From Mesotaenium endlicherianum (lineage: Eukaryota): 57,597 nt of DNA. Shown piece after piece: positions 3,395-57,597 of the stretch. The DNA is taken from NCBI GenBank assembly GCA_009602735.1, contig WELA01002665.1, positions 1-57,597 of the forward strand. Reading direction: 5' to 3'. Every line of letters begins with the position of its first letter. The first letter of the stretch is position 1. The notes under the pieces were generated by a model. It did not search any database, was not told the DNA's origin, and saw only the letters and a list, made by a program, of their open reading frames with translations. A program made the position numbers and the translations under genes.

Positions 3395-3411
3395 TCCAGT
3401 CTACTGACTGT
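3370..3411 (+). promoter_or_regulatory. -1 programmed ribosomal frameshift signal
   Basis: T TTA AAA in the gag frame, 7-nt spacer, perfect 10-bp stem ACAGTCAGTA/TACTGACTGT; the -1 frame is pol. Confidence 0.8.
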
Positions 3412-9320: not shown

Positions 9321-10039
9321 TGTAATGAATCAGTATATTGGTTGACATAATATACATTCAAATATAACAATTAAATATGTTCAGCCTGCTGAACTCTAGT
9401 TAATAATCAGTCTGCTGGACTTTATATTTAATATCAGTTTAATGACTCAGCCGAAAGCAACAGGCTGAAGTCAGCTTAAGTCAGCTTGCTGACACATTCT
9501 TTGACAGCCAGCTGACTTTCGTACTCGGTAGCAGCGAACTGCCTCAATATGCATCTAAGTGTGGTATGCTAGATGAATGGCCAGATGACATCCCTATGAT
9601 GGATGGCGATTCGGGATGATGGGAGATGGCGGTGGATTTGGTTAACCGAGGTTCTACCAACGTGGTTAACTCCCGGGTAGGCGGTGCCATCGCACTGGCG
9701 GTTGAACAATAGACTCATTCCATGTACATATGCTAGGCATTGCTCTCGAGTCGGTATTCGGAAACAAGGCCAACTCTCTTGTACAGCTTACTGAGAGAGA
9801 TTTGAATCCAAGGCGAGAAGCCATTGATACGCACTGTCTTCTAACCTTGCTTATGTATGAGTTTACTGATTGCATTATTGATGCTAGTTTACTTGCATTT
9901 GATTTACAAGTGTTGTTCACTGCTAGTGTGTTGTCCTTTTGCCGTTTAGCCAGTTAACGGAAAATCCATAAAGATTACTTGCTGATATAAAGATCTTTAT
10001 TAATTGTTAATTGCCTATTTGGTAAGTCGATTCATTTCA
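9321..10039 (+). repeat. 3' LTR (719 bp)
   Basis: TGTAATGAATC...GATTCATTTCA terminal inverted repeat; matches 1644-1870 and, inverted, 953-1643. Confidence 0.95.
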
Positions 10040-11293
10040 GACACGTACCACAGGCATATTTCATGTTAATCTGTGAGGTCTCCACAGATAGATAGCACAC
10101 ATATCATACAAACGAAGGATGTCAGAACCTGCGTGCGGAGCGAGTTGAGATTGAAGAAAAGGCGAGGCGAGGCGAGGCGAGGCAAGGTGCTTGATTTCCC
10201 CGGTAGCTTGGGGGGCTTGGGGTGGCTGGGTGGCTGAACCATGTCACGTGTCAGAGCCAGTGCTGACTCCCGACAACTCCAGGCGCATTCAGCATAAGGT
10301 TCAGGGTGGGAGCTCCTTGGGTTCAGGGCTGAAGTATGCTCTCTGGCTCAAGGGTTGACTTGGCCAGGTGGTCTGACAGGAGGCTCGTGCGCGGGGACCC
10401 CAACAATGGCACTGACGCTAAGTTGTTGGCATTCTCTGAGGTGCTCACGTGCCTGGGTCGTAGCAGCAAGGCACAGTTGTGTTCTCACTCACCGTCCATC
10501 TCGCTCCCACGTGCGCGTGCAGGCCTGCCGCCCGTGCGTCTAAAGTCACCTGTCGTAGAGCTCGGTCATCTACATGCTACACGTGCGGCTTGTGTCAAGA
10601 GCGTCTCAAGAATGCTACCACGTGAGCTGTTGAGCGGCACATGACTCAGCGTCAGGGCGCGGGTCTACCTGGCCAGCTGCAGGAGGGTGGGAGGCGCTGG
10701 TGGTGGAGGGGGTGGAGGAGGAGGAGGAGGAGAGTCTGGAGGCGTGGGCGCGCTGCCCCTAGCTGCCGGCTGAGCGCAGGCGTGCCGCCTACCGGCGCAA
10801 CTTCATGCGGTGCGTGTTTCCTCCCGCCCCTACGCGCGCATGCCTGCATGCGTTCGTGCCGGGCAGCGCAGTGGCAAGTCCTTGGAAGCGTGCAGACAAC
10901 TGCACCCATGGGCTTTCATTCCATTGAGAATTTAAGTGGAGGAGGGGCGTGCAAGGGCGGAGGGGGGGGGGTTCAGCATTTGGGGGTTGGGGGTTAGGGG
11001 GCAGGAAGGGCACCAGAAGATACTATGAGGCTTTGCTGGCAGCTTGTGATGCAATGATGCTCCCACCTGGGCGAGCAACGTGCACTCTCTTGCCCTTGCT
11101 GGCCCCAGCCTGGACTGCAGCAGCTGCCAGCCAGCTGCAGGATCTGAGCATTCTGGTAGAGCTCAATTTGCAGCGGCGAGACACCTTCTCACACGCTCGA
11201 GCGCTGAAAGTGAAACAAGCTAGTGAAACTGGTCAGCGTTCATCACATGCTGCGCGTGTCTTGTCACCACTTCCACTCACTCCCTCCCTCCAC

Positions 11294-13249: not shown

Positions 13250-13472
13250 ACTCTGGGCTTTTGTGCAAGTCGCGCATGTGCTCCACTTGGCACTCATGCA
13301 GCGTTCCTGTCCTCTGTCCCCGCCTATGCACCGCCAGTTGTGCTTTGTCCTAGATCTTTGTTCTAAAGGACTTATATGTCACTCCAGCCGCAGCAGCAGG
13401 CATCTTACTATGCTATGACCCTGTTCGTTGTGTTCCTCTCCCACATCTACGCACACAAGTTATCCCTACTCT
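13250..13472 (+). repeat. Diverged direct repeat, copy 1 (copy 2 at 28729-28930)
   Basis: Shared blocks ACTCTGGGCT, TGCAAGTCGC, CACCGCCAG, AGGACTTATATGkCACTCC, CCTCTCCCACA, CCTACTCT in the same order. Confidence 0.85.
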
Positions 13473-13479
13473 AAGAATA

Positions 13480-14466
13480 TTAACGTCTAGTACACGGCTT
13501 CGAATAGCTCTTGGGTACACAAAACTGTGATCTCGGCGGCGTAACTAACGCAGAAGTTCCAGCGCCACGACTATGAGTAGTCACGACACCTTTGTTACGA
13601 AAAATGTAGTTGCTGATACCGCATTCCCCCCATACCACCACACGCACCACGTAGATGGAGCAAGGTAGAGGCCAGTGTTTCCCTCGCTCCAACACCATCA
13701 TGCGCATCAGATCGGCCCTCACCAGGTTTTCCCCTTTGACTACGGGTCCCAGGTGCCATAACCCCTCTTCCGGTTGTGGGCACGTAGGGTGGCCGGGAAG
13801 GCAACGGCCCTTTGCAGCACGCTTCTTTGCAAGGCTCTCAAGAAGCGAGCATTCAGAGGGGTCCTTGCACTGCTGACCAGCCAGCGGCCATTCCATGCCA
13901 GCTTAGCATGCAGCGAGGCCCAAAAAAACTTCCAAGGAAGCCGTAAACTGCATAAGGGTCAGGCTTGATCAACCTGGCGGCCAGGTTGGGCCTCCCGCAG
14001 CTCCCCCAGTGGTAGCACCCAAGTCAATCGCCTGGAGCGTGGCCCTGGCTTGTGACGTGTCAGAGGAGGTCCATTGCTCGGAGAAATAAACGCACTGGCA
14101 ATGACAGGAGTCCAATGGATGGATATCGATCGACACAACTCGCGAGGGGTCCAACAGTGAAAAAATGCAAAAGGGGGAAGGAAAACTTGCTGGCAGTCTG
14201 TGGGATCAGCATAGAACCCAAATGGCCGACCCACACAAGAAAGTGAAAGCACAGGGGGGAGGAGGAAACTGCAGGTCCAGCAATGACAAAGCGAGGGGCC
14301 AGGCGAGAGGGTGGGTTTGGAGAGGCAAGGAGAAGGGAGGGGGGCAGGAACGCTTGACTGTGGGGGCAGGGAGCGAGGGGGCGCAATAGAAGAAGGAATT
14401 GTGGAGGGGCCGATGACTGCGGGGGCGGGGAGGTAGGACAGGCACTTGCCAAAGGAGCAAGAGGTA
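13480..14466 (-). pseudogene. 3' part of an unknown Pro-rich gene split by the DNA transposon
   Basis: Removing 14467-26065 restores the frame ...PPNTEPQPL/PLAPLASACPTSPPPQ. Confidence 0.55.
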
Positions 14467-16853
14467 CACTCTAGATTTTCTTAGCACCCCCCTGAAATTA
14501 TTATGACATGAAAGTAATTTGACCGGGCAAAAAGACCCTTTCCGAGTCAACGCAGTCGGAATTCACTACTCAACATCTTAAAACGTCATTTCCGCTGATT
14601 TAGACGAACCTTAATTGTGTGAAGTGTTGACGTTCACAAACTCGCTTGGGCCGGTAATTGCCTATTATTTGACAAAATGGGTCCACTGACATAATCGTCG
14701 AGGGTCTGCTTCACATGTGCCGTTCCTTCATCGAAGCACTGTTGTGAACAATGCGTCAAGTGATCCCTTCATTAAAGCTTAGACGACCACAACGGGTCGA
14801 GCTCCCGCATTGATTCGTTGATAACGGAACTCTCAAGCCCGCTTCGACCAACAAGAGCCTCAATTTTTCCTTCATAACTACTGCATGCTTTCTTGCAGCA
14901 TCTATTTTCTCACGCAGCCAGTCATCTACAATTCTCACCCATTTTTATCAGCACAGGTCCCTGTAGCCGAGTATGCCTTTCACTACAGAGTAGCTTAATC
15001 ACCGCTTTACAGATGATGTTATTGCCATTTGTTTACATCCTACGTTGTCTTTCCTTTGCTCTCCTTCTCTACCAACCTCATTCCATGAACGGAAATACGA
15101 GAAAACGTCATGTGGATAAGAAAGCAGCGTACTTTTGTTCCCATCCTTTACCTGATGAAAGCATGTGTTCATTCTCCCTGAAGCCCAATTACAATGACAG
15201 ACTACTGGACCATCACAATGCTCAAATCCATGGCATTTTCCATTTCTGTATGTTCATGGGTTGCACATCTAGATACACAAACCGGTTCAATCTTGCATTC
15301 CACCAGGTCCAATCACGGTGAGTTTATTGCTCCATACCCATGCTATAGAGTGAAGATTGTTCTCTCCCTTTCCAACGTTTTTATTACTTTACCTGGTGGG
15401 ATGAATTGCTCCGATGTAACTCCTTCTGCACCCCATGCTCTTTATACTAACTTCTGAATTGTATTATTTTCAGGCAACAAGGTGTTGGCTTCCACTCACA
15501 CCAATATTGCAATGCCTCTCACTAGTACCTGTTCACTGACTTCCTGTTATTGACCCCTGTGTATATATCTTATACCCGTCTCTTTGCTACTTTGCGTTTT
15601 GGATACTACAAATATGATATCTATTTTTCTATCATTTCATTTTTCATCTTCGCCATATAACTACTGCTAGTTCGTGAGCTCACTTCTCACCAGTCCTCTC
15701 CACTTCCTGTCTTTCTGTTGTAGGAAATCCACTTCAAGAGAGTCAACCAATTCTCAAGTCTGCCACTACTTTAGTACAGGCAACATCTACGAATTATGAT
15801 GGTCCAACTGGTCTTGTTTCTGAGTCCAATCATCTGCTGCAGCTACAAGGTTGACTTCTTAATCAAATTACCAAATAGCTTATATTGTGGACACATTCAT
15901 TCTCGTTGTTTTCCAAGCCTTACCCTCTTGGATCTACTGTAATTCATTCCATACGGTTGTCTTCCCTTTTGTTTAAAATATTGCCTTTCGTCCATGAATA
16001 CTGTTTGACTTATTGTTCACGAAGCTTTGCGTCCTCCTCCGCATACTGCGAAAGTCACATAACTGGAAGCAGGCTACCTTCTCCCTTGCCGTATAGCAGG
16101 CGTCTGCCCCTTTGTGTCCTCTATTCATTGCTCTCTCCCTTGGACTAATTTGTCCGCTCTTTCTCTTCCATCGAACTTGCTCCCTCCTTCTCTCTCGCTG
16201 CTTCTTTCTTTATAACTATCACGTTCCCTTCTTTGTTTCCTTGAAGCTGTCTTACTCTGTGTTTACACTTATACATCTTGGTTTGTGGAACCTATGTGTT
16301 CAGGTGCAGTGCGTGAAACAGGGCAGCCTGCCAGTGCTTTTGCAAGTCCAACAACCATGCGGCTTGGAAGTGCTGCACTCTTGAATCAAAGGGCGCCCAT
16401 TATTGTACAAAATATTGACCAATATGAAAGTATGTTCTGTTCCAATATCGTTCATGTGCTCTCACATTTCCACTGAAATTCTTCTTGCCTGCCTGTTTCA
16501 TGTGTACGCTAGTTTTTATTCCATTTACTATGTGCGTCTTACTGTTGTTTGCACATATGCCCAGTACATCTTCATGTTCATAATTCTCAGGATGTTCTTG
16601 AATTTACTACTTTATACGTCTTTTGTCATTTTTTTTTGCCTCTGTTGCTGCTTTGTTATTTGCACTTACATATTACAAAACTCAGTGTTCTCCCTTGCCT
16701 CTTCCATCAACGTCATCCAATGCCCCTTAACCCTTCCCCCCTACTGGTTTCCCCCCTTCATGTATCGCTATTCTTTTGGGCATGGTCTCCTTTTTGTCAG
16801 TACTGGTTTTCACTCAATTGTCTCATTCTTCGTTTCATGCTCCATTTATGTAG

Positions 16854-17872
16854 CTCCCCTCGGTAGTTCGTCGTCTACCTCTTCACGGCAACAGAGGAGA
16901 AGAAAGGCTGCAAAGAGGCGTCGTGCTGTCATCAACTCCATCAGTTCTCTTTCTGATTCCTCGTCACATTTGGGTGTACCCTTATGTGAACCATTGCATG
17001 CCTCTGTACCTCTCCAGAACCCCTCTCCATGCCCTCCTCTATATACGTATCCTGCTCTACATAATGGTATTATTTCGTCTTCCTCACTTGGTACATCTCC
17101 CTCTAGTCACTCTACCCCATCTTTACTTACGACTGACCTCTCCTCTCCAGAACATTCTAATCCAAAATCCCCTTTGTCTTCACCCTGCATGTCGCCAGTA
17201 TTTAATGCTTACCATTCAGACCATGAAACTCGTCACCACACATACTCTGAATGTTGTACCCCATCTGGCTCTCCGAATGGTGGCACTCAGTCAGGAGACT
17301 CTGAGGATTTTGAGACTTTCGTGGACAACGTTAATCGCTCTCGAACACGTCCTGTAATGTCAAACACCACCTTTGGTGACCCTCTTGTCAGACCATACGG
17401 GCGCCTGAGGTCCTTCACATTTGCTGTTGTGTTTGCACACTACATGTTGGTTTCTCCAGATGCCCAAAGAATTAGCAGGGAACTCATAGCTGAGATTCTA
17501 AGCCACCAAAAGTTTTCTGTGAAAGACTTCTTGAGACAACCACGCACAGATTTGAGAAATTAAAGAAACAACTTGGTGAGGTTGGTGTGAAGCAATTTGT
17601 CATGCCGGATGGTGAAATTCCATACTATAGAAGCATAGTTGACACTCTTACTTCATGTCTTTCTGATCCTCGTTACACCGATCACATCCATTGGAAACCA
17701 GAATACACGCGCGGGGGGTTAGTAACCGGTATTTACAATGCACCTTTTGTTACTGACGATCATGATGACGATTTTTTCAAAGAGTATAAAGCTAGTTTCA
17801 GGACTTCTGGAGGTGCGGACCTCACTCTTCATCTTGGAGATAACGTTGTTTTCCATGAGACGACGTCGAATG
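16854..17872 (+). pseudogene. N-terminal exon of a CMC-type transposase, truncated before the catalytic core
   Basis: YGRLRSFTFA and GLVTGIYNAPFVTDD match YGKLRNFSFA and GVVTGVHNAPFVTDD of the transposase near 57500-57130; TAG/GT boundaries; stop and frameshift near 17561-17587. Confidence 0.75.
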
Positions 17873-18264
17873 GTAAATGTTAGCCACATATTTGCTTTTC
17901 TTTTTGTTTGCCCTGTCATGCATAGGGGTATGGATCTCTGTGAATTCCTTCCTTTCCCTATGCTCACCCAGTACTTATGTTCATGCTCCCTTGTGCTTGG
18001 TTTTTTGTATTCCATGCTTGTACGTTCTCATATATATGCTAGGCACGTCTGGGAGGCATGTGGTGCATGTTTCTCTTTTATGGTCGTACATATCTGCATT
18101 GCCCATTATGTCTCCCAGAACTTGCAGATCTTCATTAAAATTCTTCGTAACCACATTTGTGCATGCTTGGATTGCTCTCTAATTAATGTGCATGGTATAC
18201 AACTTACCCTCCAGTCTTGCCATGCAACTGTTTCCACTCTCTTTTCTCTTAGCACCCTCTTAGC

Positions 18265-18267
<3 letters not shown>

Positions 18268-18312
<45 letters not shown>
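18268..18312. repeat. (CT)n microsatellite
   Basis: Perfect CT run. Confidence 0.95.
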
Positions 18313-18314
<2 letters not shown>

Positions 18315-19121
18315 TACCCTCCGTCCTCACCCTAACTGTGCTCTGATCATGTGGCCTTTTCTTTCCCCTTTATGTATGTTACTCAGAGACCTCCATGTGG
18401 TAAGAGTTGATTATTTTGTTGCAGGGCACGTGAGAGGTGGCCATTTTGGGTTACTACACAGCAAACGCTGCTGCATCTTTGAACCTGGTGTGGCCATTGT
18501 ACGGGTGTATGGTTGTGGAGGAAGCAACATAGCATATGCTTTGCAATTGTCAGCAGGTAGGTGTGTTTTTGTGGTCATTGTGTTTTGTGCTAAGATTGTT
18601 TTCCGGCATGTAGCTTGGTATGAGTAAAATAATCATTTAGCTTCTAACTCTACGTCTATTTGGCCACCTTTATGCGTGCCTTCCTGCTCTTTGTGTAGGT
18701 GTGTAGGTGTGCTCGTTTGCACGTGCAACAATGTAATGTGAATGTGTGTCTGTCAATCTGTAAGTGTGTCGTTTGCGCATCTGGGGGTTGGAGGAGGTTG
18801 CTACTTAGGCTGACCTGGCGTCCTATAAAGTGGCGGCTTGCCTGCCTGTTGGCCTAGTAATTGAAAATTTCTTCCCAAGGCTATGAGCATGCATGCAGTA
18901 TTTGAGGCCAAGGCGCATGCGTGTGTTGCAAGCAAGTTTGTGATTAGGCAGAACTAGCGCCCTCATATGTGCATGCCCCGCACCTTGCTCCAACACGGGT
19001 GTGCTCGCGCACCTACAGGGTGCTGTGTCCAACCCCACAGGCCGCATAGCAGACTTACGAGGGGGGAGGCGCGTGTGTGCGTGCGTGCGCGTGGCGGGGG
19101 GGGGGGCGGCAAGGGGCGCAG

Positions 19122-19892
19122 GTGCATGGCAGACTGCGGGTGGATCGCGGGGCACTCGTACATGGTGTACAGCTCGCTGCTCAACGGGGGCGCGCAGGTG
19201 GTGCTTGAGGGCGTGCCTAGCTTCCCCGGCTGGGGGCACACCTGCCAGGTGGCGGAGGTGCACCAGGTGTCCATCTTGTACACAGCGCCCACCACCTTCC
19301 GCGCGCAGATGCGCACCGACGACGACGTGCGTCTGACCCTCTCCCTCCCTCTTGCCCCCTTCATGGTCCATTGTGCGTGCTTGCGTGCATGGGCTTATCC
19401 CATTAGCAGGAAAGGGGGGGGGGGGGGGGGGGGGNGGGGGGGGGCAGCGGGGGGTTGGATGACTGCTTCTCTGCTCGTGAGTAAGAGAAGGCGCCCTTCT
19501 CTTACACTCTGCATGTGCGTGCATGTGTGCTGTGTGCGAGTGTGCTGTGCGTCAGCATCCTGGGGTACGTGTCTGTGTAGCAAAAGCCACGGGAGAGGAG
19601 CACGCTTGCCCTCACAGTGCACGCCATCCACTCGCGCGTTGCCTGCATGCCACCGCCAGCCAACCACGACTTGTACGCGGGCTTTTTTCAGCTAGTGGGC
19701 CTGTCCCGCGCCCTCTCCTACTCCCAGTATCAGCAGCAAAGGTGTGTTCATTTTGGTTCTGTGGGCGCGGGGCTGGTGGCAGGGGGGGCAAGGGGGTGGG
19801 CGGCATTGGGCAGTGCGTGATGAGGTATACTTGCAGAAGTCGCTGCGTGCGCTGGGCTGCGTGGGAGAGCCCATCAACCCCCCAGCCTGGAG
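19122..19892 (+). pseudogene. ACS: Acetyl-CoA synthetase fragment, two exons (19122-19326, 19814-19892)
   Basis: CMADCGWIAGHSY..LLNG..EGVP..ILYTAPT and KSLRALGCVGEPINPPAWR are AcsA signature segments; CAG/GT splice sites; frameshift in exon 2. Confidence 0.9.
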
Positions 19893-20541
19893 GTGCGCCG
19901 ACCTCCTCTCTACCTCCTTCCTCCTCCCCTCCCTCCCTCCCCTCCTCCCCCCTCGGCCCCTCTCTTGCTGCAGCTGAATATCTCTCCCCCCTTGAAGAGC
20001 GAGCATGATATTGATGGCACATGCATGAGTCATGCTTGTCCGTGCTGGGCTGTGTGCTGCCTGCTATGCGCGCGCGCGGGGGTGCTGTCACATATTTCAG
20101 GTAACATACTTGATTCTTGAGTTTATGAGTGTCGTTCACCAACCTCACAGAAATGATGTTACCTCAATTGACTAACATTATTGCTGTTTATATGCACTAC
20201 ATCACAGGTTGTCACACATTGTGTGAAGTTAGTTGCATAATTTATGAACATAATTTTTCAAAGATGTTACTTGCTACTAATCTTATGCATAAAACAGGTA
20301 GTATTGCTGCAAAGTGCACATGCTATAAGACAAATATCGGAAGTGCAAAGACGATACATGCATCATGAGGTACACATTCAAAATTGTCATTTGGATGTCA
20401 AGATGGCATATGTGAAAATGTCAATTATTAGCAGACTTTGATAGCAGTGTCTTACAATCGGCGACATCACTCACTTACTACACAATGAAGGCAGGGATTT
20501 ACAACGAGGTACAGCCATGGATAACACAAAGTATATAGTAA

Positions 20542-21640
20542 TCATAAATAAGAAGGTACTATACATTGCTCAACATCATCTAGCAATCTCAACAAATCAC
20601 AAGGCTCATCCTCATTGCTGTCAGAAGGTAAAACCACATTATTGAAAATCGGAGAAACATTCTGCTCCAATGATTGTATCGTACTAAGATCTTGCTCATC
20701 TCCTGCATACAAACTTTCATTGTGTAGTGCCGCTTCTGACATCCCCTCAGGCAACTGCAATTGTTCTGTACTATTCTCCATCTCCACGCCAGCAGGTCTG
20801 CGATCACCATCTAGTCTCACACAAGTACGTGTGGGGGGCTCCCGCGGGTGTGACCGAATTTGTAACAGGAAAAAAAGAGAGGTTCATGTGTCAACAATAT
20901 TGATTGAAATATGTTGAGGGACACCGGAATCGCATGTGCAAAGGAAAATGGGGTGGGATGACAAGGTTCACGTACCACTTCTGGCCTGGAAGCGGGGTGA
21001 CATAAGATGAACATCATGCTGGACTTGCGCAGAAAACGTGACACCCGGTACTTATTTCCTAGAGAGCAAAAGATCTTGATGCGGGCAGGGATCTGCATAG
21101 AAACAGTAACAAACTCAATGTCATTCATTTTGTGAGGGTACAAAACAACACAAAAATTGCTATTAATGAAATTGTTCACTGCGAAAGCATCATGAAAAAA
21201 AATTATAATAGAACAAAGCATGTGTAAAATGTATACATACACACAAGCTGCAAATGGCACATGTGTGGAGAGAGTTGAAAGTGTACTACTTACAGCGTAG
21301 TCAGAGGGCTCAAAGTATGTCACAAAACCCTTGAGAGAAGCAAGTTTGCTGTCAACAAGCTTTGCCAGGTAATAGGCGTTCATTGCAGCTATGTGACCAA
21401 TTTGGGTACCGCGAGGACTGTGAACTTCAATAGCGTTGAAATCAAAGGGGTTGCAAGGATTCCTTTTCAGTGTCACTGTTTGCATATAACCAACATAAAT
21501 AATGTAATGTGCGTGTGGAAAGGAATAAAAAAGAAGGAACTTTCACATAAAACTTGCATTTTACCTGATGGGCAGCTGGTCACACCAGCCTACATACCAT
21601 CACATCTAAATAGGGGCATTATAGTGAACATACACATAGG
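20542..21640 (-). pseudogene. Stand-alone HIRAN-domain gene with acidic tail (multi-exon)
   Basis: VTLKRNPCNPFDFNAIEVHSPRGTQIGHIAAMNAYYLAKLVD is the HIRAN motif. A phase-0 GTAAGT..CAG intron (21293-21093) joins it to IPARIKIF. No helicase follows. Confidence 0.8.
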
Positions 21641-22358
21641 GACTGTATAGTCGACAAACATATAACAATAAAGGCAGAAGCGAGGAGTTGGGAGAAATAG
21701 GCCCGGGAGGGAATGGGAGCAAAGGTGAAGAAGGGCTTGTACACAAATAAAAAGATGTGCCAGCTAAAACACACAACCGAGCAGGCTGTAGGCAGCTCAC
21801 TTGGGATCATGAGATCTGACAAGTGTAGCAAGCCTTGCATAATTTATGAACATGATAAAACTAAGGGAAAGAGTATATGGAGGAATGCATATAAAGACAT
21901 TCAGCCCCATCATGCAAGGTCAAGGTCAAAGAGCACCCCACAAAACAAGATGCAATATGCACCCACATACTTAACTCTCACCAAGAGCACACGCACAAGA
22001 GGTAGCAGGCGTCAGGCACAAAACGGGGCACTTGATTGAGGCGGAACCTGACGGACGCACGTAAATGTTCAAACAATTGCGTATTGAAGTGAGCAACTGT
22101 CTCCGAGGCGGTATAAGACTGTAAAGAGCACGTAAGTGTTAGTACGATGAGGTATACGACGTGTCGATACGACAGCCGAGGATTACGTACGTGAGGTACA
22201 AGTGTTTAACATGGACATTGAACATTGAGAGGATAACGAGTGCAGCATGAGAATGACGAACAGTGGTCAAAAGCGGCGCATAAATGGCTACCCTGGAGTA
22301 GTCACCATCATCGTTAGTTACACAGTGAAGGTCTTTTTAAGTATAATATTGTGCACTT

Positions 22359-25190
22359 ATGGAAGACTCTACGTCGAAAGGGGCTTCTGAAGAGAGAAGC
22401 GAGAGTTCAAATGGAGGAAGTTTAGCCAAACGTGCAGATGGGGAAGGAACCTGTGTTGAAGGGAGAAATAGGTCCATCAGAACTAGGCAGCCTAGTGCTA
22501 AGGTGAGGGAATCGCAAATGGCTGAGGATGACGGAATGCAGGATGTTTTGAAAGGTGTGCAAGGGTCATTAGTAATCTCTAAGGAAGAAAAAGCACAAGC
22601 AAAAAAGCAAGAAATTCTTGTGGAGAACTACGTAGCACGGGTTGAAGTGAAGAGTAGAAACAGGGTAGAAAGAGTAGGCCAGAAAGTGAAATCTATCAGT
22701 GCAGTCGATAACGCTGCACAAACTGTCGTTGCTCCTGTAGGTGGCCCACCTGCTACATGTAAGCCTTTGTCAGTAGCTCAGAGAGCTTCTTTGGAAGCAG
22801 CTAAGGATGGTGCAAAAGAGGGAGTAAAAGAAGGTATGTCGGAGTTTTTTATGGGACATGACAACTTTAAACAATTCCATGACATACCTTTGACCATTCT
22901 GCAGGCAGTGGCTGTGAATGTTGAGAGGCTGGTGAGGAAATCACGGGTAGGTATTGAGGGATATAATGGGGAGAACGATACTTATGCTACAGATATTTTG
23001 GACAAGGGCATGGAAGACTTGAAAAGGAAAAGCGAGGCGCTATTAGAGCGAGAGACACAGTTTGTAGATGTAGTGGAACTATTGAAAGAGGCGACGGAGA
23101 AGTGGGACAACATTGAGGAATCACTCAAGCGCGTGAAAGCAACTTTGGCGACTGGGGTAGAAGGAAGGCGCGTCAACCACCGAAGGAAGTGAAGAAGGAA
23201 GATGACCCTTTGGAGGTATTGTGTATTTTCCTCATGCTGCAGTTGTGACTTTGTTTAGTGGTTTGCAATTTATGGTCATGTAAGCTAAGGGGTTGCCAGT
23301 TCTTGCATTTATTTTGTACAACACTTGCATTAGCAGACTTAGACGTTAAATATGGCAGTATTATTAATGCAAGTACAACATGCACAATTGTGCAGTGATC
23401 GCAAACCTACCCCACATGTTGCTGTTGAATGCCAGGCGTGTCTTATTGAACACCCACTGGTAGTGCAAAACACGTGGTGTATGTTGTATGAGGGCGTACA
23501 ATTCTGTTTTGCAGCTCAAGTGCACCAGAGAGGTATGGGAGGAGAAAAGAGCGAAGGTCATTGTTGGCCTTTTCAACAGAAGCGAGTATGCAAAGCAGCT
23601 CATGTGGATGGATGTATTGGCCAAAATGAAGGTGCATGAGCATGAAGAGATGATGCATGGCGCCTCCGACTTGGCTAAGAAGCTTTTGGAAATGCAAGAG
23701 GATGAAATTGTGAACGAGACAATATTGAACCCCATGAAGAAGGTAAGGGACCTCTACTACAGCAAGTTCAATTTGGCATGTTGCATACATCCTGCTTCTC
23801 AAAGAGTGCTATTTGTGTGCATAGCAAGTAGTTCCTGTTCATGTTGGGAAGTGAAGACCTGGTTTACTCTGTATATGTATTGTGGTCTGTCGGTAAGGTT
23901 CTTGTTGTAATGCAGGTGTGAAATACTTGCATAAATCCGAATTAATGAACAATAATGTGTGTGCATAAATCAAGTGAAGCCAGCAATGCAACTACTTGGT
24001 CTTCCTCTCAACAAGTTTAGAGTATATTCAGTAGTGTTCCAAATGCTGAGTACGCCTATGTTGGAGTGCAGTAAATGGGGTGTTTATGGATCCAGAGCAA
24101 TGGCGACTTCAACAAGTACATCACCCTGGATCGCACCTTGAGGGGGAACAAGATTGAGGATAGTTATTGAGGTGAGGACGGTACACTTGCATTGGAACAT
24201 GCAACAGTCATTGCCAAGCGGGTCTTGAATACTCGCTTTCCTTGGAAAGAATGGTACAAAACTGCACCTAAAGGGAAGGAGAGAATTGCACTGGAGATTG
24301 AGGGCGTGAAATATGTCGTGGCTTACTACAAGGACAAGCAGGTGAGTAGTTGTGTGCATTTTGATAGCAGCAGTATAATATCATAGAAATAATGTAAGAT
24401 GGATTATTTGTTTGCAAGTACATGGTTGAGTGACGCTCATATTGGCATTTTGAAACATGTCTTGCAGGGCAAGCTGGATGCCCTTGCTCCTGTGCCTCTA
24501 ACGGACGTTGCGGTGCCCAGGAATGGTGCGGTCAACAGTATTGCATCACGAGGAGGTAAGTCATGCTGTGAAAAGTGGAAGTCCACAAAGAGGTAGAATG
24601 GCTGTTGACAAGCATTGAGGGTGTATGGTTGGAAGTTAGCGTTGGTCTGGTCAAAGAATGTGCCACTTGGCGTATATTTGTTGGCATTTGACAGAGTGCA
24701 AATATTGCTGTGAGGACCTGTTGTGGTGCTGCCGTGGTGCATTGCATGCCATGGTATTGGGGCGGGGGGGTTCAAAGAGCTTTTTATGATGCATACATGT
24801 TCAAGAGGGCTGTGGTTGATAGTGATGTAAGTACTAAGGTGTCTACTTGTCGTCTCAAATACATTTCTTGTGGTCTGGTTTTGAATATAGGGTCTTGGTG
24901 TGCTGTGGCCGATAGTGGGCATGCCTGGCATTGGGACGGGGGCTACAGAGTGATTATTATGATGCACACAAGCAGGGGTTATTTGGGTACTCGTGATTTT
25001 GGCCTGTCAACGAATGCTGTGCGATGATTGCCGTTGTTGCCGCACGCATTACCTGACTAATTTGTTTTGTTTGTGACAGAGACAATGGCAAGTGAAAGCA
25101 ACATGTGGGCACAATCAACAAGTGGATTGGGAATAGCAAGTGAGGGAGGGTTGAGAAAGAAGATGAAGAAGTTACATAGACATGAGTGAT
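22359..25190 (+). pseudogene. Unknown multi-exon transposon accessory gene (low-complexity N-terminus, coiled coil)
   Basis: 277-aa ORF, then coding-like exons ending at GT donors (~23742, ~24341, ~24556). Lies inside the TIRs. 3' limit approximate. Confidence 0.55.
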
Positions 25191-26065
25191 GAGACCAGAG
25201 TTATATTAATATGACGGATTAATGTACCTGACAAAGGCAACTTGTAATGAGCATTGCTATAGCTAGATAATACAGTAGATGGTAGGCATAGTTATACACA
25301 ATTTCTTTTGTCATATTTCATTTCTGCAAGTAGGAGTACAGGATCTGTATAAGAGCATTATTATTTGGTGGTACATAATAAAATGCAATGTTTTCAGTGC
25401 ATACTTGTCCGTAGCCATTACAGTGTGTGGGCCAATGTACTTTGGGTTTAACTCAGTAATGAATAGCAATAGTTTGTTTATGAAGCACTCATAAGTGACA
25501 AATGAATGATAGGGGAGACTAATTGTGATGGTAGAGTCATGGTTGAGTCGGTGGAAAAGGCTTCGTATGCTATATATGTGAATATGATTCATGAGCACGG
25601 TGTGTGAAATGAAATACTGAAATGGACCCTAAGAAGTTCTATTGAATAAGGTGGAAGGGAATGCAAGTTCTTAGGGCAGCTATATAAGCAGGTGTCAATG
25701 ACAACGAAAATGAAGGACGTTCATACAGGGCAGGACTGGAAAGGGCCGTCGGACACAATGACAGAGAAAACACTGTTCGGCGACAGTGACGCCGAACTTT
25801 GTCAGGTATTTTAGACTTGAACGGCGTCAGACATCTTGTGCTGCGACAACGCTTATTTGAAATGAAAAATGAAGTACATGCGGAATGGACACTTGTGGAC
25901 GCGGCGTCATTTCAAGATCTGTCCCACGCGCAGGCCTCTGATGATTTTGTCTGAGACTGCGTCTAACGCGGGTCGCCGGCCTGAAGCCGGCCTGAAAATC
26001 ATTTTCATATCGACAAGTCGCGGACTTTCAGAGCACTTTCAGACGAAGGGAAAATCTAGAGTGTA

Positions 26066-27950
26066 GTGGTTGAGGCTCCGTGTTGGGGGGCACCGCAGGG
26101 GATGGAGACGATCTGGGCAGAGAGGCTGGAGGGTGAGTTGGCTAGGCAGCCGGTGTTGCTGGCTCAGCCTTGGGGGCGCCTGGCACAAGTCACTCCAGCT
26201 TGGGTGTGGCCGACAAGTGGCCCTCCAGCAAGCGAGGGAGGTAACCTGCCAAGTGGACATTTTGTGGCACGTGGCACTCGACAGGAAGTGCGAACGGCTC
26301 CCCCGCTGACGCGTGGGCGGCAGGTGGCAGCTCTTCAGCTGGGGTGTGGGTGACAGGTGGCACTCCAGCAAGAAAGGAAGGTGGCCCGCCAACTGGACTT
26401 TTAGTGGCAGGTGGCGCTCCGAGAGGAAGTGTGGGCGGCTCCACAATTGACGTGTGGGTGACAGGTGGCAGTCCGACAGGAAGTGCGGGCAGCTCTCCAG
26501 CTGGGATGCGGGTGACAGGTTGCGTTGCTGCATGGGAGACAGGTGGCACTCCCGCAGGGAAGGCAGGTGGTGCTGCAGCGGGGGTAGTTGCACCACGTGG
26601 CACTCCGGAGGGTCTGTATGTGACAGGTGACGGAACCCCAAGCGTAGCAGGGTTGTCGGAAGCAGGTGCCGACGATCCAAGAAGACTTGGGCTGCCAGGC
26701 CCTCCCGGGGTGGCCTGGGTGGGCGACTCTCCAACCGGCAGCACGGGGGGGTTGCTTTACGGCGTAGCGGGCGGCAGAGGGGCGGCTCTGGTTGGTGGGC
26801 TGCTGCTGCTGCCGCTGCTCCTGCCGCTGCTGCTCCTCCGCAATAGGGAGAAGGGGAGGAGGGAATTGCGCTGCTATCTGTCCCTCATCTGCTGGAGGCG
26901 GTGTTGATACGGCCTCCGGCAAGTCCCCTGGAGGAGGAGGAGCTGCGAGGAGCATGAGGGAGAAAAAAAGGGGAATGAGAAAAGAGATGACAAAGGAAGA
27001 GAAATGGACTAGCTTTCTCCCAGTCATGGCTGCCGGCTGCTTCTTGCCATCCTGAGCACGCAAGACATTCAAAGTGCAAACACTTGCAAAGACGCACTAT
27101 CGGGATTTGAGCGGGGTGGATCGCAGACCAGATGATGAGGGCCCCGCATGTACATTTTCTATCACGTTCACGCCTACCAGCAGCACAGCATCACTGGGAG
27201 AGCCGTAGGATAAAATAGCCAATCTGTTCAGGCCCCAGGGTACGGACAAAATTGGTGCCAAACTTCTCTTTTGCGAGAGCTTTAAGATAATCGGGGCAAA
27301 CAATGCACCTGAAGGAGGAGTGGGCGGCGCTTGCAGAACGACAGCGGCGGGACAATGAGCCCGTCCACGCCCCGCATGGAGATCCGGCCGTCCAAGTCCA
27401 CGTCAGGGTTTACGGCCCTCACAAGCCCTGGCAAGGCCTGCAGCAGGCGCCTCCTTGAAGGGGACACGGTGAAGAAGGCCGTGGCGGCGTCGAGGTTGAA
27501 GAAGAGCCCGCCGTCGACGACAGATGTCAGGACAAAGTTCCCCAATACCGTCTCCAGCTTGCTAATGGCGCCCATCAGGTCCGCAAACGTGTAGTACTTT
27601 GGGATGGCAAGCTGCTGACGTGGATGCTCCGCCAGGCGACGAGTTGGGTGAGGCACTTGGGGGCCCTGCTGATCTCAAAGGTAGGAGGGACAGCAGTGGT
27701 GGAGGAGGCAAAAGAACGCCGCAGTTCCCCCATGGCGCGAGCACTGGCGATAGGGAAACGTGCGGGAGGGTGAGGAGTCGGGGGAAGGTGGCAGCACGTG
27801 CGATAAAAGTGATGCAGGTGTGAAGAACGGTGTGAAGAACCTGCAGGCGGAGGCCCCTACCCAAGCAATGGATGGTGATGTAGGTGGCGGAGGCAGTACA
27901 GAGCCTGGGGTTTCAGCAGCTGGCGCAGAAGAGAGGAAGAGGAAAGACAA
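26066..27950 (-). pseudogene. 5' part of the unknown Pro-rich gene, with ~20-aa GVPPVTH-type repeats
   Basis: Overlapping ORFs 27282-27656, 26401-27072 and 26190-26744; repeated GTGACAGGTGGCA motif; continues in frame at 14466. Confidence 0.5.
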
Positions 27951-28728: not shown

Positions 28729-28930
28729 ACTCTGGGCTACATGCAAGTCGCAAACGTGCTCAACGGGGCACTCGTGCAGCTTTTCTGTCCTCCGGCCCCA
28801 CCTAATCACCGCCAGCTGCGCAGCGTACGAGAGGACTTATATGGCACTCCGAATGCGCGCGCATCACACTATGCGTGACCTTGTTTGGTGTGCCCCTCTC
28901 CCACAGCTATGCGTCAGCTGTACCTACTCT
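28729..28930 (+). repeat. Diverged direct repeat, copy 2
   Basis: Colinear with 13250-13472; cut off by the LTR starting at 28934. Confidence 0.85.
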
Positions 28931-31221
28931 GAATGTAAGGTTATGAAAGTGTAGTTTGTTTCTTTCTAGTATTTTATATGCATAGAGTGTGATCTTAGAA
29001 GAACTTTGGCCTTTATTTCAAGTCATTTGGACAAGTATTGAGGTAGTTATGAATTTGGGAAGTTTTTAGTGAGTTTTTAATGTTACAGATTCTATTTAGT
29101 GACAAGGACAAGTCCAGTGACGAAAATTTTGGTTGGAGTCCAGGAAGTAGGACATTGAAACATGAGGGTTCTAGAAAGTACGTACAATTATGTAGAGTGC
29201 CAAAGTGATCGTGGAATTTCTAGAAACTCCGTGAGGAGTTAGTGGATTGTGTAGTAGAATATTCTAGAGTGTGATTGTGTGCGTGTGAGTGTGCTAGCTG
29301 TGCGCTAGGGCTTTGTGCGCAGCCAGGGTTTATGCCTTGGTGGTGCGCAGCCGTGAGCGCGTCGTCGGAGTTCCAGCCGGCAATCGGGCCGCACAGCGCA
29401 ATCGAGGATGCCCCCCCTTGCGTGGGAATGCTAGGCACGACCGTTGGCCGTGCCGGGACGTGTGCGCATGACACGGGTTGACGTGAGCACGTAGCTGCTC
29501 GGTGTACTAGGCAAGGTCACCTACATGGAAGGAGCCATAGGAGAAGGTTCTGGAGGTACTTTGCTAGAGAGGACACTTAGAGTTAAAGGATAAATGGGAA
29601 GCACAAGGAAGTAGAGGGGGCTTATTCTAGTCTAACCTTCTTATCTTGCACGACTTTTCTTAATAAAGTGAGTTCTTTTCCACTCCTCTCTCATGTAGCC
29701 CTCTAACTCTTACAAGGGTGGCATACCACCAGGCCACTCCTCCTTGTGTATGCAACTAGGAAAGGTCCTCGTGCACGCTTCCACTCGCGGGTGAGGGTGC
29801 GTGAGTGTGTGTGGGCGCACTCCCCGCACCCTTCCCCCTTTCACATGGTATCGGAGCTACTTAGTTGCTTCATTTGGAGGACTTTGGTTGGTGATGCTTG
29901 TAGGAGTGTAGAGAGGGTAGAGAGGAGAAACAAGGATGATTTATAAGTTGCTAAGGGCAGCCATGAAGACATTGATGCAAGCTAGCATCTCACTCTCTTG
30001 AAGGAGGGAGGAGATGGGAAGAGGGAGGTGCTCCAAGAAGTGTTAACTTGGATGCAACCAGATTTTCGTACGTCTTCTTTATAGTATAAGAAGGTTGCCC
30101 AAGCATGGTAGTGATATAATTAATATAGAGCAACCTTTGCTTGAGTATGGAGGCATATGAGCATGAAGAAAATCTGGAGTCTACACGGCTGAATTTTCCC
30201 TTGAAGATGCAAGCTCTTTGGTGTTAAGCACTTTCTTTGAGGGGGGCTTAGCATAGAGGTGATAGTGGCTAAAAAGGAGTGTGTGCCCATCTTTATTTCA
30301 GATCTTCAATGAAGGTGGAGCAGATTTTAAGGGTAGGCAACCAGGGACTTAGCAAGCATGTGTACTTGCAAGTCTAGAAGCTTTGGCGGGCATGGCACTC
30401 GCAAGCCAAGAGGAGCTCATGAGAAGCTCAAGAGAGGGTGCACCGGGGTGTTGCACCAAGTTGGCCAAGTATGTGGCCAGATTTGGGTTGCCTTGCATCA
30501 CTCCTATATAGCCACTGGATATGTTGACCAGCCATGGAGCTTGGTCATTCTTATGGAGATTGATGAAACCTCAAGTGAAGAAAAGCGCCGTGGAGAAGGC
30601 TTGGAGCAAGAAGAAGTGACACAGATTTTTCTTCAAGCAAGATAAGTGGAGATGGAGCCTTTCAAGTTCAGATTTTTCTTTTTCTTATGGAGGAGACTAC
30701 TATGGAGTACTTCATGGTGAGAGCTATGATGAAGATAAGCCTATGGTGCGGAAGAAGAAGCAAGGTATGAAGTTGGTGCAAGAGGGCTAGTGCAAGAGAT
30801 GTCTCCCACTAGAAGTGCGTGTGCGAATAGTGTTGTGTTGGGCATAGTTAAGGGGCAGATTTTGGTGCATCTATGGAAGCTCTTCATGTGAAAGTAGAGC
30901 ACCAAGGCAAGCTGGGTTTAGTAGTAAGAAGTGTCATTGGGGTGACCAAGGCTAGAGTGCACTCAAGAAGCTAAGCATGTGGAAGGAGTTGCACAAAGAG
31001 AGTAGCCTATCCTCTAGTGCTTTAGTGCACGGGTCAAGTGAAGACCAAGGAGGACTATGGTCAAGTGAGGTTAGTGAAATAGGTGGAGGTAGATATGACC
31101 ACAAGTAGCTATCTTCAGCCCGCTAGCAAAGAAGCGACGCGGGAAGGTGAAGGTGAAGGAGAAGCGCTTGTTTTGGTGACCTTGGCCCGGTCATCACACG
31201 GAGCAAGCGTGCCTCCTAACA

Positions 31222-32163
31222 TGTGACGTTTCTGCTTTTCGAGAGGATCTTTCCTTGGTATTCAAGAAATATTTAATTCAAGTGGGAGGAAAATCTGTAC
31301 ACTTGTGGAAATTGACGAATACTCAAAAGAGCGAAAGTGAAAACTAACGTACAATGTGTGCTTGTGAGAGTTGCACTCACAATGACTCTGCAGGTAGTTA
31401 TACATGCACAACATGAGGCACTGGAGTGCTTCGAGTCACCACCTAGGGCACTGGTTCATGTTTAACGAAAACGGTCGAAGGGACGTGTCCCATTCGGCCG
31501 AATGCTCGAAACGCGCAGTTGGCTGTTTGGAGACTCTTCGACGGTTTCCGAAAAACCGTTTCGCGCCAAACGGGCGTTTTCGCGTTCTTGCAACTTTCCA
31601 AAAAAGTCGCGATTGATCGCGGAGTCGCGTACACATGCGTTCGTCATGAATCGGTAGTTTAAAAAGCTACTTTGGCCAATCGGTTAGGTGTGAACGTTTC
31701 AAACGAAAGTTGCGGGTTCGAATCCGCTCGGATGCAAAGCGACTTTGCATATTTCGTTTCGTTTGACTTTACGACTGTTTGTTCGTATTAATGATACGAC
31801 AGTGTCTTCGTATTACGACTAGTCGTAACCCGAAATCTGTGATTGTCCATTATTCGTAAAAATGACAATCAAAATAACTTAATCAAACAATGATTAATTA
31901 AATTATCATCTCATAATTATTCAAAGTAACTTTATGAATAATTATGTCGTACTTTTGCGAAGTAGTCGAATTACGTTACGACGCTTTTTGCAATAGTATC
32001 TCGGTCGTTTCGCCAATCGACCGGGAATTAATCGGCACACGCGTGTGGCGAATGATTCAATGTGATGCAATCATTTATCAAATAACTTATGATAAATAGT
32101 ATAACGTATTTTAAGTAATTGGGAAAACGTCCCAAATACGCCTAAAAAGCTCAAATCGTTACA
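31222..32163 (-). mobile_element. Solo LTR (942 bp) with TSD TAACA
   Basis: TGTGACG...CGTTACA ends; TAACA at 31217-31221 and 32164-32168; host element is contiguous when it is removed. Strand inferred from a TATAA-like motif. Confidence 0.9.
31666..31736 (+). ncRNA. tRNA-like Pol III A/B-box segment (pseudo-tRNA) inside the solo LTR
   Basis: A box TGGCCAATCGG (31673-31683), B box GGTTCGAATCC (31715-31725), tRNA-like spacing and T-arm; acceptor and anticodon stems pair poorly. Confidence 0.55.
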
Positions 32164-33057
32164 TAACAACCTTGGCGAGCGCGCATCGCCGGTGGAGCAA
32201 GTAGAGGTGTATGATCCCCTTGCTCATGTATAGAGCAGACCCCAATTGCTCAAGTGGAGGAGCTCCTAGAAAGTGAGCTCAAGAGAAGCCCGCTTGCAAG
32301 ACGACGTGTGTGCGTGCACAAGATGAGGTGCAAGCACTAAGAGTATGTGCGTATGCCCAAGTTATGGAGCTCTTGGAGGCGTTCCAGATGTGTTTCTTGG
32401 AGCCTTGTGTGAAGGCTGACCTTCAAGAAGAGCCAGAGGTATGTGGGAGTGAGCATCTAGCCAAGGAGAAGACTATGATGGAGTTTGGTGCACCACGAGC
32501 GAGACTACGCGCTCATGTGTAGTGATTTGAGTCATAATATATTAGTTGGCATATATTTTAATGTTTTCAAATATATTTGGAGTAGTATTGTGTGGAGTCA
32601 AGTGTGAATAGGTACTCTAGTAACTTGGTTCATGTCCTTTGAACCTTCTAAGGCATTTTCGAAGTTAGAGGAAAGACCTAGAAGAACTCCATGTGGCAAA
32701 AGTCAAATGTGCCTTTTTTAGGTCAAAAGGACATGTGTACATTATTCTAGAAAGAGGTGGCAAGTTTTGGGATGTGTTGGGTGCCAACACATCAACATAC
32801 ACCTTCCTAGAAATTACTTATGTAGCAAGTATATAAACAAGAGCTAGAACATAGAAAGACATTCCAGAATCACTCTTGTACTTGCCAAAATCCAGAAATA
32901 TATTAACTTTCAAGAAGCCATCTCTCTTTCAAGAAGCTACCACTTGTGTTCAAAGATCCTTGTCTTGAATAGATAAAGTATTCTGTTTTACTAAGTACTT
33001 TATCTATCTGTTTCACTACAGTGGTATCGGAGCTAGGCACTTTGGTAGCACAAGAAG

Positions 33058-34338: not shown

Positions 34339-34352
34339 GCCAGGAGCCTACC
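34317..34352 (+). promoter_or_regulatory. -1 frameshift signal
   Basis: A AAA AAC in the gag frame followed by hairpin GGTAGGC-CAGGA-GCCTACC. Confidence 0.78.
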
Positions 34353-37300: not shown

Positions 37301-37426
37301 GAAAGCTCTACAACACGCGCAAGATGCTCAAGCAAGAGTAACGAACAGATCCAGAAGAGAAATTACGTACAGAGTGGGTGACAACGTGTTACTATCATCC
37401 AAGAATATTTCTCTGAACAACAAGCC
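34317..37426 (+). pseudogene. pol: Pol (PR, RT, RNase H, integrase)
   Basis: LVDSGA, FIDD, TDAS, HHCC, ISMDL, HPQSDGQTER; one in-frame TAG at 36492-36494; truncated before any chromodomain. Confidence 0.95.
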
Positions 37427-52546: not shown

Positions 52547-52602
52547 CCCTAAACCCTAAAACCTAAGCTCTAAACCCTAGGTTTATTTTTTGTCTAGGGT
52601 TT
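52547..52602. repeat. Degenerate plant-type telomere / telo-box motifs (CCCTAAA)
   Basis: CCCTAAACCCTAAAACCTAAGCTCTAAACCCTAGG...CTAGGGTTTA. Confidence 0.6.
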
Positions 52603-55145: not shown

Positions 55146-57548
55146 TTGGAAGGGATCCCGCCGTAGCAGGTGCGGTTGACGTCGGTTCGTTTGTTGCGAG
55201 GCTGGTACCTGTTGAGCACGGTGCCTTCGCCGGTCAGCTGTTGAACTTTGTACGACATGCCACCCTCTTGACTGTCCTCGAGCATGTCCATCACCGCATC
55301 GCATCGAAGAGCGAGCACCGCACCCCTCGACATCTGCAGGTCGTTGATCACACTCCCGTCCATGTCTTGGACACACGCCCGCAGGGTTGCCACAGCCTCC
55401 CCGTGGATCAACGCCCACTTTTCAATGTCCGCTGACACCCTGCCGCTAGTCCTCGCTATATGCTGCTTGACCTACTTGTGCTTCGCCTCGTACTCCTGGG
55501 CCCAGAATTGTAAGAGGGGTCCTAAGCTCTCCAGGTACTCCGATAAGTGCATTAGAAGATGCATGTTATGATTTCCCGCGTTCAGCGCATTCCCAACTCT
55601 GGGCCAAGCATCCCTAAACAGAGCATGGAACTTGCGCGCGAGTTCTAGCAACTTCTCAAAATGTTGCCTGCCTGTTTGGTGTTCAAAAGCATAGTTGACG
55701 AGTCGCAGCAGCGACTTCCACAGGTCGTACAGAGCACGTCGTTGCTCACGTTTTCGAGGCTGGACATTGCGGGGGTCGCAGAGGGCTGCATTATCAGCGG
55801 CATGTACTTCACCATATGCAGAAGCTTCATACCTGTCATAGAATGTGGGTGAGTGCCAGGCCTCCAAACCTTGGCCACACCAGGAGGGTATTTCAGCGAC
55901 GCAGCATGCCAATCCAGGTCATGCCGATCGCGTCGCCCACTCTTAGAAAGTAGCATGTTAGAGTACTTGAGCAAAAGTTTTGGCAAGCCAATCGCCAGGG
56001 CATGGAAGGGATCAGGGGGGTTATCCCTGTACCTATTGTACCCTGGCAGCTTCGTCAACGGGCTTGCAACGGCAGTGTATCCTGTGTCTCTCACCCTCTG
56101 CCTCACCTCCGCTTCACTCAGCCCAGCACATTCAGCGACAAAATCCCTTGCATCCTGCTCCGTCCTCGCCCCGCAACAATATCCCAGACGCCTAGCTCGT
56201 GATCCTCTCCCCTACATAAGACGTTGCAATTTGGGCAAGGCCTATGTGCCCCTATACCTACAACCTTCATGGTCTTCAACCTCTGCATCATATCCTGGAT
56301 GAAAATGGGCTTCGCGCGCACCAACACAAACCTGTCCAACGGGGCAAAGTACATGCGCACGCCACGCGCTAAGGGGATGAGGTCCAGGTGGACCATAAGC
56401 TCAACAACCTGGTCCTGGGGAGCCCCCTTGGGGGATGAAAATGACCTGGTGGATGGACGAGGCTCGTTGCGCGACGCTCAACTCCAATGACCCCAGCCTC
56501 CAATACACGCCTCCGAGCGCCTGGTGACCTGTTCTGCGGGCACGAAAGTCGTCAATGAAGATGGAGACGACAAGGTTGACGACGGTGAGACCTTTGGGGT
56601 TGTCAATCCTTGGAAGCAAAGGCACACCCAATTCCAACCTGGAAACCGGCTTGACAGCGACGTCGACGGCCACAAACTCCTCGTCTAGCATTCGACTACG
56701 GCAGAAGAATGTGGGCTGCCCGTTGTGTACCTGCCCCGCCCCGTCTGCAAGCTGTACAAAGTCCCTCAGACCTGCTATCTGCCACTCCTCCCACGAGATA
56801 ACTACACAGTGCAAAGCAAAGTTGCGCACTGACAGATCCAACCTGCGAAGACAGAGCAGTTCCCCGTCCGAGGATGCACACGCGCCTACGTCGTGCCTGT
56901 GCACGGCCTCGACAATCATGAACATGTCGCACTCTAGTTGGGCGTGCGGCGGTCCCTCCCTGGTGACGTCGCTCCACAACACACGTCGCGGCCTAGCAAT
57001 GAACTGGTAATCGGTATCGTGCCCCTCACGGTAGTAATTAGCAAGTCTGAAGCAGCCCCCCACAGGTAACAAGGACTCTACGCCCCCTACGTCGTGCACC
57101 TGCACCCCCCCCTCCATGAAGAACGGATCATCGGTGACAAAGGGGGCGTTGTGCACGCCCGTGACCACACCCTTGACAGGATACTCGGCCCTGTAGTGAA
57201 TACTCCGTCCCAACTCCCGGTTCCCCAACACCCGCTTGAGGTGTACGTGAATGGGCTGGTATGAGACTTCTTTGCCGGTGCGCAAGACGTACCTCTGCAC
57301 GGCCAGTTTCCCATAAAGTGCTCGAGGGCCATCTTGCGCTCGAACGAGTAGTCGCTAAGCCACTCAGCCAAGGAAAAGTAGGGATGCCGGCAAATCCGGA
57401 TCTCGGCATTTGTGCCAGCCTGTGTCCTAGGATCCATCAGGGTGTGGACACAAAATTTTGTTGCAAAGCTGAAGTTGCGCAGCTTCCCATACACAGCCCC
57501 CTCCATATCATAGGACTCCTCTACGCGCGGGCCGTCGTCCGCGTCCAA
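55146..57548 (-). pseudogene. CMC-superfamily (EnSpm/Plavaka-like) DDE transposase with BAH-like insertion
   Basis: IFIDDF..HQALGGVYWRLGSL (D1), IQDMMQ (D2), CPNC (CxxC), DPFH, NMHLLMH (Hx3H), YEAKH (E); at least four frameshifts or stops. Confidence 0.82.
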
Positions 57549-57597
57549 TGTGCTGCCTTCGGGCTCGTTGAATGGAGAACCCCCCCCCCCCCCGCCT

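Follow-up and report, generated by a model that had tools for sequence, protein, structure and literature searches.

A probable non-autonomous CMCT-type transposon copy with CACTC ends, TA flanks and a captured host fragment in Mesotaenium endlicherianum

An 11.6-kb stretch of the Mesotaenium endlicherianum genome is best explained as one old, non-autonomous cut-and-paste copy of the CMCT clade (CACTA/EnSpm-Plavaka-ESTA). It probably belongs to a Plavaka-like branch that has a BAH-like insert, and was likely inserted through the 2-base staggered cut of a DDE transposase. We put the probability of this reading at roughly three in four. The stretch lies in contig WELA01002665.1, positions 1–57,597 of which were analyzed and are referred to below as the window. 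Homology and exon reading confirm the full set of contents named in the original prediction, which are a transposase remnant, exons labeled ACS, and a divergently arranged pair made up of a HIRAN gene and a gene for an unknown protein, here called ORF3 (Table 1).

The ends of the element are perfect 14-bp terminal inverted repeats (TIRs), CACTCTAGATTTTC, that start with CACTC and have TA on both flanks; this much of the original prediction is borne out by the sequence, by assembled contigs and by chance controls. Identity between the two TIRs ends at base 15, with no similarity past base 14, and the flanks (GTA/TAG) show no repeat over 3 bases. The TIR together with its TA is found perfectly at just these two places in the window, with a third match carrying 2 mismatches; by chance, 0.33 matches would be expected in the window at ≤3 mismatches. 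In 30 windows simulated under a dinucleotide model, the longest perfect TIR inside TACA..TGTA measured 8–11 bp, compared with 14 bp here, and 0/30 reached 12 bp or more. Base composition shifts at the ends as well: in 100-bp windows, the left end shows a drop in GC content from 0.62 to 0.43 and the right end a rise from 0.51 to 0.66, and the flanks have values of 0.56 and 0.63 compared with 0.42–0.45 for the element apart from its ACS block. Both the 5'-CA..TG-3' termini with TIRs that characterize CMCT elements and, at this copy, a target-site duplication (TSD) within their 2–5-bp range (TA/TA) are found, and no clear subterminal repeat array was detected in the element.

Table 1 Features of the element and of the related transposase in the same window.
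Feature	Position	Strand	Basis and remarks
Left TSD copy, TA	14465..14466	no strand	By sequence
Left TIR, 14 bp, CACTC start	14467..14480	+	Sequence; 0-difference contig 13400–18256 across junction
Possible 5' exon, C2H2-like Cys/His pattern	15082..15318	+	By eye, no Pfam match; may belong to transposase gene
Transposase remnant, N-terminal, to start of BAH-like region	17189..17876	+	Frameshift near 17531; homology to 56404–57354
Next transposase exon, in-frame stops	18425..18556	+	Spliced to ACS exon in one contig
Host block, ACS exons 19122–19326 and about 19814–19892 plus intron	18900..20085	+	GC, homology, host transcript
HIRAN gene, multi-exon, acidic tail	20542..22120	-	HIRAN exon 21295–21484; candidate upstream exon has stop
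ORF3, ~six exons, protein without known domain	22359..25190	+	Frameshift near 23170, stop at 24168
Right TIR, 14 bp	26050..26063	-	Sequence; 0-difference contig 22901–26563 across junction; paralogous ends stop at 26063–26068
Right TSD copy, TA	26064..26065	no strand	By sequence
Dead transposase, related family, outside element	55148..57500	-	Full core by eye; used to classify remnant

The duplication had also been argued from an open reading frame, PPNTEPQPL-PLAPLASACP, that is rejoined when the element and one TA are taken out. The frame does exist, but it provides no test of the TSD, as other offsets give frames that are equally long. Removing the element plus 0, 1, 2 or 3 bases leaves longest open frames of 442, 408, 359 and 441 aa, respectively, and because long frames arise at every offset in this GC-rich target, the rejoined frame carries no weight for the TSD.

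Related copies were surveyed in contigs from 4 of the 24 runs listed, two of them DNA runs of one sample that is perhaps the assembly's own source. In the two DNA runs, 0-difference contigs bridge both junctions at a depth of ~60–70, equal to that of the flanks, which indicates that a second, near-identical copy is absent; contigs are interrupted at a CT microsatellite near 18260–18320. ORF3 is common to a diverged copy, as a 3827-nt contig matches two of its exons at 84% (32/199 bases differ) and 81% identity (55/290 differ), and equal-depth joints extend this paralogous contig to 25992. Two DNA contigs deviate from the window at 26035–26036, and at least one of them, as read from the alignment end, continues through the TA to 26068. 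A 453-nt contig from run X5 (depth 3.1) aligns to 25993–26063 with 10 differences and then runs into 116 unlike letters. Diverged relatives therefore have the right terminus in common, in support of the boundary. Judging by the X5 contig, TA does not appear to lie next to the TIR in every copy; an end that stops exactly at the TIR is not what strict TA targeting would predict, and such targeting is at best a possibility for the family. No left-end paralog was found at ≥85% identity in the DNA runs, and none of the joints listed (15 of 26) leaves out precisely the element. A joint from 14157 to 26813, with a side of 21 letters, is present in both DNA runs; it might reflect an empty paralog that has diverged, or else an artefact of a microsatellite. 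Two metagenome matches to the 20-bp left end (L001 and L002) span 21–23 bases only and were taken as chance.

The transposase remnant was classified through a related transposase that lies outside the element, at 55.1–57.5 kb in the window. The two share 35% identity over 88 aa (E 9e-14), with a second match of 37% over 46 aa. In the neighbor, motifs read by eye with no reference alignment comprise a D in the 56559 region, C(2)C at 56237 between the first and second D, a D (with His) in the 56016 region, H(3)H at 55561 and an E in the 55498 region; the available portions of two descriptions (PMC12730594, PMC4592977) give the same motifs for the CMC/CMCT clade. The neighbor contains 4 frameshifts and one stop, and no second TIR pair bounded by TA+CA was found for it in the window, beyond which its left end lies. 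The window also contains chromodomain Ty3 elements, GC-rich introns with GT repeats, and, at three places, a primer site that we take to be of the methionine-tRNA type.

When eight pieces of the neighboring transposase were compared with all frames of the element, a plus-strand excess over shuffles was seen only for the two N-terminal pieces (scores of 121 vs 46 for the piece just before BAH and 68 vs 61). None of the 6 BAH, core and C-terminal pieces rose clearly above 20 shuffles, the best scoring 52 against a maximum of 51 and on the wrong strand. The DDE core and its C(2)C and H(3–4)H motifs, present in the homologue as read by eye, are absent from the element copy, which, with its catalytic motifs missing, is unable to move by itself. 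Judged by its sequence, the element is a dead, non-autonomous deletion derivative that has no catalytic core.

Searches with the remnant and with pieces of its neighbor matched no transposase family in Pfam, EnSpm domains and Plavaka included, and the Plavaka model PF18759 gave no HMM match up to E 1 or 10. The neighbor pieces likewise returned no protein relatives among longer proteins at E 1e-3, 0.1 or 10, and none in 1.84 billion representatives, PDB sequences or viral contigs, while a single-sequence AlphaFold model had a pLDDT of 31.5 and was unusable. Atlas features relate the N-terminal piece, as leads only, to a BAH-domain cluster (0.86) and to two Plavaka-bearing clusters (0.81 and 0.80), and relate the second-D region, at 0.95, to clusters with PF18759 in 25% and 12% of their members; 25 of the 30 matches listed for this region fall in clusters without a common family. 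The remnant has no direct family match, and the clade call is taken over from the 35%-identical neighbor. The sub-lineage is left unplaced, being Plavaka-like by language-model features alone.

Directly after the last transposase exon, at the place where the catalytic core would be expected, the element contains an ~1.2-kb block with a GC content of 0.65 vs 0.42–0.45 for the remainder. The block matches residues 303–368 of acetyl-CoA synthetase (E 1.2e-17) and PF00501 (E 5.8e-7); a reading of the label ACS as ACC synthase is ruled out by the acetyl-CoA synthetase match. A presumed host ACS mRNA is spliced and deeply covered in runs X5 and X8 (depth 146 and 356), which we take to be RNA because their contigs are spliced. 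It differs from the ACS exons of the element at 25/206 and 8/65 bases (88% identity), and the second of these exons has two extra bases relative to the host transcript. Among the 20 differences listed, codon positions 1, 2 and 3 account for 7, 6 and 7, as under neutral decay. The ACS exons are not a gene of the element's own: as far as these comparisons of sequence go, they are a captured host fragment of the Pack type in neutral decay. The arrangement itself is that of a Pack-type element, with a host fragment and its intron between TIRs and no catalytic transposase of its own. A transposase–ACS chimera is formed by one low-depth X8 contig of 411 nt (depth 2.9), which passes with 0 differences from 18408–18556 into 19122–19326 across an intron at 18557–19121 with GT..AG borders. 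Only a single copy of the element was seen at near identity, and the capture may have taken place where the copy now sits, without later movement.

The HIRAN gene is convergent with the transposase and divergent from ORF3. Its domain is recognized by PF08797 (E 8.5e-11) and by the HIRAN domain of HLTF (E 3.9e-10), and a CxxHxxC motif is absent from its coding part. The GC content of the gene, 0.42, equals that of the element and is unlike that of the ACS block, suggesting that the gene has been resident for long, and no paralog covering the gene at 85% was found in the contigs examined. ORF3 has no Pfam family, and no signal emerged (best z 0.7) when its exon A was aligned with five pieces of the gene that lies downstream of the second transposase. 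The HIRAN domain of HLTF holds 3'-OH DNA ends, and on this basis one may speculate that the HIRAN protein is a resident accessory factor that would keep hold of such ends, either at the cut element or at the donor site. HIRAN was not found as cargo of CMCT-type elements in the available portions of the literature searched.

Other readings of the ends and of the affiliation have to be set against this evidence. We consider it highly improbable that the inverted repeat arose by chance and that the 11.6 kb were pieced together from unrelated debris. Somewhere in 17/30 simulated windows there is an inverted repeat that is perfect over 16 bp, so that such a repeat is by itself not rare, the window is rich in repeats, and the joints listed contain no empty site; however, the ends sit exactly at both GC steps, a TIR of this length that starts with TA+CAC is outside the range of the simulations, a transposase is enclosed, and paralogs end at the same point. 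There is equally little to recommend a 16-bp TIR (TACAC...) that includes the TA and leaves either no duplication or a 1-bp duplication of G. As TA is palindromic, the inverted match is indeed perfect over 16 bp with a G on both sides, but one paralogous end breaks off at 26063, short of the TA, and CMCT elements, in the accounts available, mostly start with CA and make 2–5-bp TSDs.

A possible, if doubtful, reading places the element in the ESTA/CNEST branch, as a strictly TA-targeting member in a green alga. The CMCT clade comprises EnSpm/CACTA, Mirage, Chapaev, Transib and Plavaka as well as ESTA and Lanisha (PMC12730594), and within it the EnSpm-like ESTA elements of rust fungi have TA TSDs by definition and are mostly 7–14 kb long (Kojima 2025, PMC12730594). 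The element resembles ESTA in its CAC start, TA flanks, size and room for an extra gene, and 41/41 ESTA starts among those listed in the source begin with CAC. None of these 41 listed families starts with CACTC, however; the fifth and later bases differ, ESTA hosts are rusts, and ESTA cargo is TET/JBP rather than HIRAN, ORF3 and an ACS piece. CNEST of Cryptococcus neoformans, as described in the available text, also has a CMC transposase, a CAC start and a TA TSD that was shown on new insertions, but its 33-bp TIR starts with CACGG and it is an active element of 7.2 kb with one gene (10.1101/2025.05.19.654958). Across insertions, the element here has TA and one DNA paralog aligns through TA by its alignment end, as the branch would lead one to expect, whereas the X5 paralog matches up to the TIR and is followed by a base that is probably not T. 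Further against strict membership, Atlas neighbors of the transposase carry Plavaka, and the variable 2-bp TSDs of Plavaka, in the portion of the source available, include TA too.

The affiliation that we prefer, a Plavaka-like branch of CMCT, is consistent with the CMCT motifs, 2-bp TSDs, several accessory genes and mostly decayed copies of Plavaka elements as far as these are described in the available text, and with the nearest Atlas clusters. Fungal PlavakaA and PlavakaB differ in having TGT (TGT..ACA) and CATCA (CATCA..TGATG) termini and variable 2–3-bp TSDs (PMC12730594, available in part). Neither Plavaka-type termini nor PF18759 was found in the element, nor were any of the Plavaka accessory domains (methylase, SET, ParB, 2OG). 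Among algae and mosses, the accessible parts of the literature report giant multi-gene Plavaka/EnSpm elements in red algae, with accessory genes PAG1–3 in the giant Plavaka (10.1101/2025.02.11.637652), Plavaka candidates in chlorophytes, streptophyte algae and a moss (PMC13519894), giant EnSpm elements with extra genes and pseudogenised transposases in the brown alga Ectocarpus, and active EnSpm in Chlamydomonas. Sly1-1 of Neurospora crassa is similar as an 11.5-kb CMC element that shows the C(2)C motif as well as H(3)H and encodes a transposase and an unknown gene, but it is active and fungal, has a TSD of at least 3 bases and contains two divergent genes only (PMC4592977, in part). Lanisha (MT647524), from the moss Ceratodon, is EnSpm-like, resides in a green plant and is listed in CMCT (PMC8245031, in part). 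The element works like ESTA/CNEST or Plavaka elements, yet it fits none of the named sub-lineages.

Plant CACTA/EnSpm elements have CACTA or CACTG termini and make a 3-bp TSD, and Pack-CACTA elements have CACTA ends and a TSD of 3 bp. In contrast, the element starts with CACTC, its flanking bases are not repeated over three positions, and it has no EnSpm match in Pfam. A broader description, in the available part of the source, gives plant CACTA/EnSpm CAC..GTG termini with a 3-bp TSD (PMC12730594). The Pack-CACTAs of Arabidopsis are comparable in being non-autonomous TIR elements with a captured fragment that includes an intron and with a chimeric transcript (PMC6379663, PMC13317346, each in part), but the present copy retains two resident genes and part of the transposase. 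To the extent covered by these sources, CAC ends with a TA duplication, multi-gene algal EnSpm/Plavaka elements and Pack-CACTAs are already published, and each feature but HIRAN has precedent. Of the proposed gene-rich, poorly described CMC lineage there remains a gene-rich CMC/CMCT element with a TA duplication at this locus; CAC/TA and multi-gene elements are in print, and the copy is dead.

The steps of excision and insertion that we propose are drawn from general knowledge of DDE transposons. The transposase of an autonomous relative would bind the TIRs in trans and excise the element, which would then be joined to a target whose strands are cut at a distance of two bases, with repair doubling those two bases. 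The native layout would have been transposase > < HIRAN > ORF3. The core may have been lost and the host ACS piece gained in one repair event, when the template was switched as a gap was being repaired; from then on the copy would be mobile only in trans, and the captured ACS exon would have come to be spliced onto the orphaned transposase exon. A Pack-CACTA route via two adjacent copies (PMC6379663, PMC13317346) fits less well, since the gene order at both sides looks like one element. We regard as improbable a green-algal lineage of CMCT that has CACTC ends, a 2-bp duplication, a BAH-bearing transposase too divergent for database matches, and its own HLTF-type HIRAN as an accessory protein that grips 3'-OH ends and so directs how the excision break is repaired. 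Such steering, if true, would explain how copies swap their catalytic core for host exons.

If the CMCT reading is correct, CAC-ended elements of this clade with 2-bp duplications, described in fungi, would extend to Mesotaenium endlicherianum, and HIRAN and ORF3 would be cargo new for the clade as far as the literature searched goes. The locus offers a snapshot, at a single site, of gene capture in which host exons, spliced to the remaining transposase exon, appear to have taken the place of the catalytic core. Should HIRAN be a conserved gene of the family, it would offer a case, open to testing, of a repair factor that binds DNA ends and is encoded by a transposon.

The dead 11.6-kb CACTA-like transposon at 14467..26063 sits within a GC-rich target unit of roughly 3.6 kb, which is flanked by direct repeats (13250-13452 and 28729-28912; 71% over 203 nt) and of which diverged paralogs exist. 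In the second exon of the acetyl-CoA synthetase (ACS) fragment captured inside this transposon, positions 19826-19829 read TATA against a single TA in the host transcript. This duplication of two bases could have arisen either by slippage or as an excision footprint.

Around a Ty3 element, long inverted duplications pair 1-915 with 3222-4137 and 997-1871 with 9321-10040 at 93-97%, and these reflect either rearranged LTRs or an artefact of assembly. The extra ORF inside the first Ty3 element matches no Pfam family. Of the two Ty3/gypsy retrotransposons listed below, the one beginning near 28935 contains a 3-kb stretch free of ORFs between primer sites 29846 and 33022, and the LTRs of the other are about 95% alike.

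Additional features of the window.
Feature	Position	Strand	Remarks
Pro-rich tandem array	26190-26630		in target unit
Extra ORF, 425 aa	8001-9278	plus	inside first Ty3 element; antisense-type, between integrase and LTR
Ty3/gypsy retrotransposon	about 28935-37490
Ty3/gypsy retrotransposon	about 39760-45920		chromodomain integrase
Dead transposase		minus	second element; full DDE core, BAH-like insert
Multi-exon gene, product unknown	about 50120-47430	minus	second element, after transposase

A second element, related to but distinct from the one at 14467..26063, occupies 46700-57597 on the minus strand (GC 0.54-0.57) and extends past the window end; a search for its termini within the window found none. 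The minus-strand interval 46183-46710, whose sole domain match is a weak one to CBM60 (E 0.05), is probably an exon of a host gene for a secreted protein, with a hydrophobic leader and a beta-rich character.
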